A stretch of DNA of 64,000 nt from positions 576,001 to 640,000 of the forward strand of contig OZ245817.1 of assembly GCA_965228475.1 (NCBI GenBank), in the 5' to 3' direction. Every line of letters begins with the position of its first letter. Positions within the stretch are counted from its first letter, which is position 1. A program made the translations under genes and the position numbers. The notes beneath the pieces are model-generated. The model was not told the DNA's origin. It worked only from the letters and a program-made list of their open reading frames with translations, and did no database searches. Below, piece by piece: positions 46,072 through 47,901 of this stretch. The stretch comes from Myxococcota bacterium (GTDB lineage: Bacteria > Myxococcota_A > UBA9160 > JAFDDA01).

Positions 46072-46150
46072 CACGGCTCCTGGGAGCGGAAGCGCCCCGG
46101 GGACCGGGCAGCGTAGTGCGAACGGGGAGCGCGGGCACGCCCGCGCCCCC

Positions 46151-47005
46151 CTAGCCGCCGCTCGAATCGCCCGGCCCGCCGCCGGAGCCCGATCGGCCCG
46201 GCAGCACGTGCTGGGTGATCGCCCCGTCCTGCTGGAAGCCCAGGTCGACGTAGACCGGATAGCCCTCGGCCGAGGCCTGGAGGACCGCCAGGGCGAAGCC
46301 TTCGTCCCGGGCCTCGAGCAGGGGGGCCTGGGCGATCGCCCGGCCGATGCCCCGCCCGCGGGCCGCCGGTACCAGCGCGAGGTTGTAGAGGCCCGCGACG
46401 CCCGCGCAGCGGAAGAGCGAGGCCGAGGCGACCGGCGTGCCGTCGAGGTAGCCGACCCAGTGCTCGAAGGGGACGTCCGGGCCGAAGCCGAACTGGATCA
46501 TCGCCTCGGTGTAGATGGCGACCACCGGGTCCGGGAAGCCGAAGGCCACGCGGACCGCGCGGCTCCAGTCCGCCGCCAGGCTCCGGTTCCATACCCGTTC
46601 GATGCGGAAGCCGGGGATCCGCGGCGACTCCGGCTCGAAGCCGTCGAGCTCGAGCGACATGCAGGGCTGCGACGCCACGGAGAGGAGCCCCTGGCGCTCG
46701 AGCGCCTTGGCGAGGTTCGCCGGGCGGGTGCGCGGCCCCGTCCACCACATCATCGGGACGCCCCGGTCCACGTAGGGCGCGAGGATGCCGACGACGGTGG
46801 CGTCCACGTTCGCCTCGGCGAAGCTCGCGCCGAGGACGGAGTTGAACAGCGGGAAGGGGACGTCGGAGATCGAGCGCAGCGCGACGCCGTCCCGCCGCAC
46901 CTGGATGCGCGAGTTGCCGACGAAGGACTCGAACAGGCCGAAGAGGTTCTCCTCGTTGGCCCGGATGCGTCCTTCACGGGACAGGTCTGTCGAGATCTCG
47001 AACAT
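46151..47005 (-). CDS. GNAT acetyltransferase (two-lobe, about 285 aa)
   Basis: AGLYNLALVPAARGRGIG, LQASAEGYPVYVDLGF; N-terminal FPLFN...MWW lobe. Confidence 0.87.
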   Translation of the reverse strand: MFEISTDLSREGRIRANEENLFGLFESFVGNSRIQVRRDGVALRSISDVPFPLFNSVLGASFAEANVDATVVGILAPYVDRGVPMMWWTGPRTRPANLAKALERQGLLSVASQPCMSLELDGFEPESPRIPGFRIERVWNRSLAADWSRAVRVAFGFPDPVVAIYTEAMIQFGFGPDVPFEHWVGYLDGTPVASASLFRCAGVAGLYNLALVPAARGRGIGRAIAQAPLLEARDEGFALAVLQASAEGYPVYVDLGFQQDGAITQHVLPGRSGSGGGPGDSSGG

Positions 47006-47070
47006 CGCGTTTCCGAAGTCTCGGGCTCTCCGTACGAGAGCGGTTCTGGGTCGACGGGGCCTGGGCCCCG

Positions 47071-47114
47071 AAAGCAATCGGCCCCCCGGTGGCGAGCACC
47101 GGGAGGCCGATTGC
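47071..47114 (-). terminator. terminator hairpin of a candidate attenuator upstream of the GNAT gene
   Basis: 18-bp stem (17 WC pairs plus 1 G-U on the minus strand), 5-nt loop, followed by TTT; about 65 nt upstream of the GNAT start. Confidence 0.65.
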
Positions 47115-47135
47115 GAAAGAAGGGCTCTTCCTGGC

Positions 47136-47345
47136 CTAGGGTGCTCGGGTCTCCGCCGCGGGCGGGACGATGCGCGTCTTGCCGAAGTCGATGGCCGTGG
47201 CCCAGCCCCGCGAGAGGGCGGACGTGCCGACGACGCTCGCGAAACGCCCGAAGGCGCCGCCTGCAAGCCCGAAGGCGCCGCCTGCAAGCCCGAAGGCGCC
47301 GCCTGCGCAGTGCATCGAATTCGTGTTGTGGTGGATCGCGCCCAT
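47136..47345 (-). CDS. 69-aa candidate leader peptide with GGAFG(LA) repeats
   Basis: SD AAGGGGGAG, upstream sigma70-like promoter, stop codon sits within an antiterminator helix. Confidence 0.55.
   Translation of the reverse strand: MGAIHHNTNSMHCAGGAFGLAGGAFGLAGGAFGRFASVVGTSALSRGWATAIDFGKTRIVPPAAETRAP
47246..47306. repeat. 21-bp tandem repeat, about 2.9 copies
   Basis: GCCCGAAGGCGCCGCCTGCAA at 47246 and 47267, partial copy at 47288. Confidence 0.95.
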
Positions 47346-47365
47346 CGCTCCCCCTTGAAGCGCCG

Positions 47366-47395
47366 ACCGTACCGGCTCCGGGACCCCATCGTCAA
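47366..47395 (-). promoter_or_regulatory. sigma70-type promoter for the leader-GNAT unit
   Basis: TTGACG-N18-TACGGT on the minus strand; predicted TSS near 47359. Confidence 0.6.
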
Positions 47396-47460: not shown

Positions 47461-47901
47461 ATGGGACTCGTGAAGAAGATCTTGGGGTGGGCGGTGGCGC
47501 TGGTCGTGGGCGTTCTCGTGCTCCAGCTCGTCGCCTCCGAGAGTGGCGAGGTCGTGACCCTGCGGACCTTCGGCCCGGACGGTGCCGCGGAGACCCGCCT
47601 CTGGGTGGCCGAGGACCGCGGCGCCGCGTGGCTGCGCGCGGGGCACCCGGGCTCGAGCTGGTACCAGCGGATCCTCGCGAACCCGGACATCGAAGTGGAG
47701 CGCGGCGGCGAGCTCTCCGAGTACAAGGCCTTCCCGGTCGAAGGCGGGCCCGCGCGCGACCGGATCAACGACCGGATGCGCGAGAAGTACGGCTGGGCGG
47801 ACCAGGTCATCGACATGATGTTCGGCCGGACCGACGCGGTCCCGATCCGCCTCGACCCGCGCGGGACGCCCAACGTCCCACGCCTGCCGGGCGAGTCCTA
47901 G
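47461..47901 (+). CDS. membrane-anchored split beta-barrel (FDOR/Ddn- or DUF2255-like) protein
   Basis: TLRT..ETRLWV, WYQRILANPDIEV, MREKYG; SD GGAGG. Confidence 0.7.
   Translation: MGLVKKILGWAVALVVGVLVLQLVASESGEVVTLRTFGPDGAAETRLWVAEDRGAAWLRAGHPGSSWYQRILANPDIEVERGGELSEYKAFPVEGGPARDRINDRMREKYGWADQVIDMMFGRTDAVPIRLDPRGTPNVPRLPGES

Follow-up and report, generated by a model that had tools for sequence, protein, structure and literature searches.

The leader of a GNAT acetyltransferase gene in the window (the whole 64,000-nucleotide stretch of Myxococcota DNA that was analyzed) appears to belong to a real, conserved and apparently undescribed family of attenuators of a known mechanistic kind. Its preferred reading, to which we assign a probability of roughly 0.6 from sequence comparison, is a transcription attenuator that is coupled to the ribosome, signals general translation stress in the manner of the whiB7/wblC leader and has been reused before export and detoxification genes. 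What is new here is the reuse before four unrelated export or detoxification modules in Myxococcota, together with an apparent change of output in three members.

The first-pass annotation of this DNA had described a promoter-like site, a Shine-Dalgarno (SD) site, a 69-codon upstream open reading frame (uORF), an 18-bp hairpin and an alternative 8+5-bp helix upstream of the GNAT gene, and all of these were recovered at the following positions:

47366..47395, minus strand: candidate sigma70-like promoter, TTGACG-N18-TACGGT (TTGACG from 47395, TACGGT 47371-47366, 18-nt spacer)
47348..47356, minus strand: SD site of the uORF, read from sequence
47136..47345, minus strand: uORF of 69 codons (69 aa); stop position conserved, sequence not
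47246..47306, minus strand: 21-nt in-frame tandem repeat (GGAFGLA), 2.9 copies, 100% identical
47133..47147, minus strand: putative antiterminator 5' strand, formed by the last codons and stop of the uORF (nascent-RNA fold)
47093..47108, minus strand: putative shared switch strand, being the terminator 5' arm and loop and also the antiterminator 3' strand (folding)
47071..47114, minus strand: intrinsic-terminator-like hairpin of 18 bp with a weak U tail (helix 47114-47074, then three U)
46151..47005, minus strand: tandem-fold GNAT acetyltransferase, 284 aa (PF00583)

When the nascent RNA of the window leader was folded, strands 47147-47133 and 47108-47093 paired as the 8+5-bp helix. A consensus scanner called 0 promoters and 0 terminators in this leader, folding of the whole leader was only modestly better than that of shuffles (z -2.21, 3/100 shuffles equally good), and Rfam gave 5 weak matches in the window, all far under the gathering cut-off, and 0 matches at 10 of the leader loci; the case for the window leader therefore rests on comparison. 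An N-terminal extension of the GNAT through the leader (a 414-aa frame) was rejected, the G001 ORF beginning at most 11 codons before its ATG. Directly after the GNAT stop lies a GC hairpin without a U tail (window 46125-46150, minus strand), and downstream of it are yhbY-like (46074-45688), Na/Ca exchanger and EVE-domain (44669-44223) genes. A divergent gene at 47461-47901 (plus strand) has weak F420H2-dependent quinone reductase and DUF2255 matches, and a similar divergent ORF is found upstream at orthologous GNAT loci.

Five orthologous GNAT loci (70-73% identity) were compared, one from a same-genus genome and four from metagenome contigs, two of the latter from one sample. The promoter pattern, SD, uORF, stop in the same context and hairpin were retained at 5/5 loci while the peptides, of 41-62 codons, were almost wholly different; the layout with its uORF was thus found upstream of the GNAT orthologues, where the first-pass annotation had proposed to look for it. 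The same annotation had put forward a specific GGAFGLA sensor peptide, and this is not supported. The repeat is absent from all 5 orthologous loci and present in 1 of the 36 family uORFs listed, the window's own. Among three public runs at the window locus, two break at the repeat, and the contig of run X3 (depth 7.1), an independent assembly, carries one repeat unit fewer and is otherwise identical. Because the repeat is absent elsewhere and varies in copy number, we infer that it is a recent in-frame duplication and not the sensor. A protein search with the uORF found only itself among 59 candidates, and tblastn detected no paralogue in the genome. By eye, one distant GNAT homologue (G006, 38%) lacks such a leader.

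In the genome of the window, a promoter scan located a further leader of this build upstream of genes for an RND adaptor and an AcrB-type pump. This second copy lies at about 4001136-4000867 of G000:C1, minus strand (L027/L059), and its 46-codon uORF ends Ala-Thr-stop. A covariance model (R1) seeded with 7 leaders of the GNAT and RND types only gave matches in 27/141 genomes of the order, and retrieved leaders before ABC exporter plus DUF1854 genes and MacAB-like genes. R1 matches L091, L092, L095-L098 and L100 were terminator-only on inspection and were dropped before all counts. A model built from 27 leaders (R2) gave matches in 29/193 order genomes, 27 of them real on inspection; the weak matches L145 and L146 were false positives and were also dropped before all counts. 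Six strong R2 matches lay outside the training set: the uORF stop was at the same place in 6/6 (TAG 4, TGA 2), and all 5 with downstream sequence precede an ABC gene. An independent protein search for this ABC gene found 26 loci in 25/193 genomes, with the leader unit upstream of 23/24 in-order ABC orthologues that have upstream sequence, and it placed the unit at 3/3 ABC loci of the sister order. R2 applied to 150 genomes of the phylum outside the class gave 5 weak matches, all ordinary terminators, and an exact pattern run over 401 genomes gave 1 out-of-order match. A loose pattern over 193 genomes was discarded as mostly chance, control counts exceeding real counts. Since 26-63 candidates were scored per genome, 4 in-order leaders escaped R2 and those of the sister order (3) were reached by the protein search alone, the leader counts are lower bounds and the range is that of the genomes searched.

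Some observations were made at individual loci during this inspection. Genus g25 has, upstream of R1 matches L091, L095 and L097, a conserved non-coding element that lies outside this family and includes a terminator. L146 (G130) is a 72-aa Lys-rich gene with an ordinary terminator and resembles, by eye, a small histone-like protein. The contig ends of L080 and L161 (G171 contigs C78 and C363) overlap at the terminator, joining leader to ABC gene, and the G171 genome carries two ABC-type leaders.

In total, 40 homologous leaders were obtained from the order and its sister order. They precede an ABC exporter (with DUF1854) in 26 cases, a GNAT in 6, an RND pump (adaptor and AcrB-type genes) in 5, a lone adaptor in 1, a MacAB-like gene in 1 and a contig end in 1, so that transporter genes follow 33/39 leaders having downstream sequence. 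Most ABC assignments were made by homology to the proteins scanned, and DUF1854 was confirmed as the next gene after the ABC exporter in 8 loci. The best NCBIfam match of the ABC exporter was CphA_assoc_ABC, under the cut-off, and no target gene matched a named resistance family above the cut-off.

A promoter-like pattern was present within 380 nt upstream of the stop in 29/33 leaders, against 0.6% of 5000 random 380-nt genome windows, and the first SD-led start after it was in frame with the conserved stop in 23/29. The uORF stop is kept in 32/33 leaders (TAG 27, TGA 3, TAA 2); in L094 it falls three codons earlier. Sequence conservation across the family begins six bases before the stop, and the distance from stop to hairpin is 17-39 nt. 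The terminator helix was 97% paired with two-sided changes at 8/13 pairs (0/500 shuffles as high); of the 8 tail positions after it, 3-5 are U in the GNAT clade (5 in the window) and mostly 6-7 elsewhere. Pairing of the stop region with the hairpin arm was assessed in a fold of every nascent RNA as far as the hairpin loop, with gene-end terminators of this genome as the control. At least 8 pairs formed in 39/40 leaders vs 19/92 control terminators, a comparison that is not a statistical test because the 40 leaders are related and not independent, and at least 10 pairs formed in 37/40 vs 8/92. L080 falls short of the threshold.

Tested column by column, covariation of the antiterminator was not significant, with no two-sided change in one test and 81% pairing in a second (40/500 shuffles as high); the helix hardly varies, and its register differs from clade to clade. 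Support for it comes from a few telling divergent members: in L177 and L184 the two strands of the helix carry new sequence and remain complementary, with a changed peptide ending as well, and L088 replaces a G-C pair by A-U. The attenuator geometry and polarity first proposed for the window are in this way supported by conservation, terminator covariation and folding, though not by column covariation of the antiterminator. At the level of sequence the features of whiB7/bmrCD-type attenuators, an SD-led uORF, a terminator and a mutually exclusive antiterminator, were all found. Variant layouts were also seen. In L172, some 190 nt ahead of the ABC start, the uORF unit is lost and the promoter and terminator are kept; there, an open frame from an ATG 5' of the hairpin continues through the hairpin into the ABC gene. 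At the start of leaders L074 and L075, the strong SD belongs to a six-codon mini-ORF that overlaps the beginning of the uORF, an arrangement suggestive of translational coupling.

Family uORFs are 26-78 codons long, with GC contents of 0.69/0.62/0.82 by codon position and a start region of lower GC; this bias and the lower-GC start are as would be expected of translated frames. Only 2/36 uORFs contain Tyr, and Glu is infrequent. Of 20 occurrences of Phe-Gly (TTC GG), 15 are in frame, and a motif of this kind is separately duplicated over a short stretch in L175.

A ribosome walk was modelled along the window leader. The antiterminator had a probability of ~1 in the nascent RNA with no ribosome or with a ribosome at or before codon 64, and of 0 once the ribosome stood at codon 66 or beyond. 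At equilibrium, the full-length leader adopted the terminator fold wherever the modelled ribosome stood; the switch must therefore be kinetic and decided during transcription. The dependence on ribosome position proposed in the first-pass annotation was accordingly reproduced in nascent RNA, with loss of the antiterminator from codon 66, and not in the full-length leader. In the proposed mechanism, a ribosome keeping pace with RNA polymerase would reach the last approximately five codons and block the antiterminator helix; the terminator would then fold and transcription would end near 47070 (off). If initiation were blocked, or the ribosome stalled anywhere earlier, the antiterminator would form first and the GNAT would be transcribed (on). 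Read-through would rely on kinetic trapping of the antiterminator, and the sequence of the peptide would be of little importance. Given the reuse before detoxification and export genes, the switch most likely turns genes on when ribosomes slow. The usual trigger would most likely be ribosome-targeting antibiotics, with amino-acid starvation acting by the same route.

Three leaders depart from this arrangement. In L175, L176 and L178, the hairpin lacks a U tail and lies ~120 nt upstream of the ABC start; a strand immediately 3' of the stop instead pairs with the bases leading up to the ABC start codon. Enforcing an antiterminator-type helix in folding removed the start-codon pairing in L175 and L176, and partly in L178. 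By these folds, the three look to have been converted to a translational output with unchanged polarity.

The GNAT is single copy in the genome. It has no NCBIfam family match and elsewhere only generic GNAT matches, and its predicted structure (pLDDT 89) is closest to 4IUS from Kribbella (Z 20.2, rmsd 3.2 over 242) and 3FRM from S. epidermidis (Z 19.8), which share the two-domain GNAT fold at 11-19% identity and whose titles name no substrate. Close orthologues within the order were found in one family only; the source names of more distant relatives (about 35-43%) include Chloroflexota and Bathyarchaeia, and homologues on Streptomyces plasmids (33-39%) gave no functional clue. Because its switch is common to three exporter types, the GNAT probably detoxifies small molecules by acetylating them and came under control of the switch in a single family, an assignment drawn from the neighbors of the switch and not from the GNAT sequence.

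The same RNA switch might take as its input a specific nascent-peptide event, either a pause at a C-terminal (R)GDPAP-stop or a ligand in the exit tunnel. Arrest peptides of the TnaC, RAPP and ErmCL types are marked by conserved residues under protein-level selection. Ala-Pro-stop does end 28/33 uORFs, and R, G, D and P stand at -6 to -3 in 16, 18, 10 and 14 of 33 with synonymous codon changes present, the partial RGDP consensus occurring before GNAT, ABC and MacAB genes; a Trp also recurs 15-21 codons before the stop in all 6 GNAT-clade uORFs. The GCA and CCC codons of the ending (30/33 each) are, however, dictated by the helix, and the L177 and L184 peptides end Lys-Ser-Thr and Arg-Thr-Thr with the helix intact. 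A frame control for peptide-level selection on RGDP was flat, shifted frames at -6 to -3 being as conserved (487 vs 487 and 377 identical pairs of 2112). An arrest at the stop would moreover switch the exporters off, not on, and we judge this input unlikely: the leader peptide is seemingly not conserved, and its Ala-Pro-stop ending appears to follow changes in the helix. It is likewise improbable that the input is nutrient or growth state (supply of charged tRNA, an Ala-rich peptide) rather than drugs and that the exporters and the GNAT serve envelope or metabolite physiology. Ala makes up 15.8% of uORF residues, above the 12.8% that shuffles predict and the 12.3% of the proteome, the whiB7 uORF also answers amino-acid starvation according to the accessible part of PMC10274678, and the available text of 10.1101/072470 ties ABC plus DUF1854 genes in beta-proteobacteria to cyanophycin-synthetase-like genes and amino-acid-polymer export. 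Yet 0/39 leaders with downstream sequence precede a biosynthetic gene, the 36 uORFs listed contain no run of one amino acid and no control-codon run, and no cyanophycin synthetase over the cut-off was found in 5/5 genomes tested of the 25 in-order genomes with the ABC gene. An amino-acid biosynthesis attenuator was rejected as a class for want of a cognate-codon run and of a biosynthetic operon downstream.

A further alternative makes the uORF an independent gene for a small protein, followed by an ordinary or leaky terminator; the downstream gene would be expressed by constitutive read-through or from its own promoter, and the helix would be incidental. This alternative would fit the equilibrium fold, the control terminators that pass the pairing test and the codon-position bias. 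It is made very unlikely by peptides that share no sequence, by the rebuilding of the helix with different letters in L177 and L184, by the restricted distance from stop to hairpin and by the wiring of the same helix to a second output at the start codon in L175, L176 and L178. The first-pass annotation had also raised the possibility that the peptide is a substrate of the GNAT, and a RiPP-like precursor or other acetylated substrate would suit a co-oriented uORF that adjoins the GNAT and repeats a motif in this one peptide. The motif, though, is missing from the orthologous loci and variable in copy number, a terminator stands between uORF and GNAT, the peptide has no homologue, and most homologous leaders head transporter genes, not a GNAT; the proposal is unsupported and hardly credible. 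The class of RiPP precursors with a GNAT tailoring enzyme was rejected, no conserved precursor co-occurring with the enzyme.

Beyond the preferred reading of a translation-stress attenuator, a bolder version can be stated, which we regard as rather doubtful: the leaders would make up a regulon for translation stress that needs no transcription factor, one portable switch would have been copied in front of unrelated genes, the GNAT and ABC-DUF1854 genes would be undescribed defences against ribosome-targeting natural products, a pause at (R)GDPAP-stop would hold the switch off, and some lineages would have rewired it from transcriptional to translational output. If the preferred reading is true, Myxococcota have a conserved attenuator family in which one homologous unit stands before four unrelated export or detoxification modules. 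The leader would then flag the GNAT and the ABC and DUF1854 genes as candidate resistance or stress genes, and the variants that mask the start codon would form a natural series for a change of attenuator output. The leader is directly testable as a reporter, and the mechanism itself is of a known kind.

According to the accessible text of PMC12218461, Gram-negative bacteria use such attenuation for amino-acid genes, and antibiotic-responsive attenuators with intrinsic terminators are, in the sources available in part, known mainly from Bacillota and Actinomycetota. No published leader-peptide attenuation in Myxococcota was found, and supplementary leader or Term-seq tables could already list members of the family. 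The primary paper on the whiB7/wblC leader is reportedly that of Lee, Lee and Roe 2022. As described in the available portions of PMC10274678 and PMC11550727, this leader of Actinomycetota has a long Ala-rich uORF of variable length and sequence, full translation of which favors an intrinsic terminator and disturbed translation an antiterminator. The Myxococcota leaders are like it, as far as these portions go, in their variable Ala-rich uORF and in the polarity of terminator and antiterminator, a likeness of mechanism for which no homology is claimed. There, one leader acts through a transcription factor on a regulon, whereas in Myxococcota homologous copies stand directly before GNAT, RND, MacAB-like and ABC-DUF1854 genes; membership in the whiB7/wblC family proper was rejected, the downstream genes being GNAT and transporters. 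In the leuL/trpL amino-acid attenuators, by the accessible text of PMC5314783, a ribosome at the leader stop blocks the antiterminator strand, as proposed here; the Myxococcota leaders differ in having no control-codon run and no biosynthetic genes downstream. The E. coli toiL uORF, one uORF sensing several classes of ribosome-targeting antibiotics, has an output by occlusion of the ribosome binding site like that suggested for L175, L176 and L178; unlike the Myxococcota leaders it controls a toxin-antitoxin operon via translation and Rho, and the part of PMC12121999 available describes no intrinsic terminator switch. The B. subtilis bmrCD, vmlR, tlrB and ytbDE genes are controlled by leader-peptide transcription attenuation, some with added SD sequestration, and this group, as covered in the available part of PMC13689557, resembles the Myxococcota leaders in placing an ABC exporter and other resistance genes under such control. 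In the same text, bmrCD and vmlR use an anti-antiterminator hairpin; since the conserved part of the Myxococcota leaders begins six bases ahead of the stop and no ribosome is needed for the antiterminator to form, the ribosome itself appears to take that part. Compared with the bmrCD group as described there, the Myxococcota family is set apart by one homologous unit that serves several targets.
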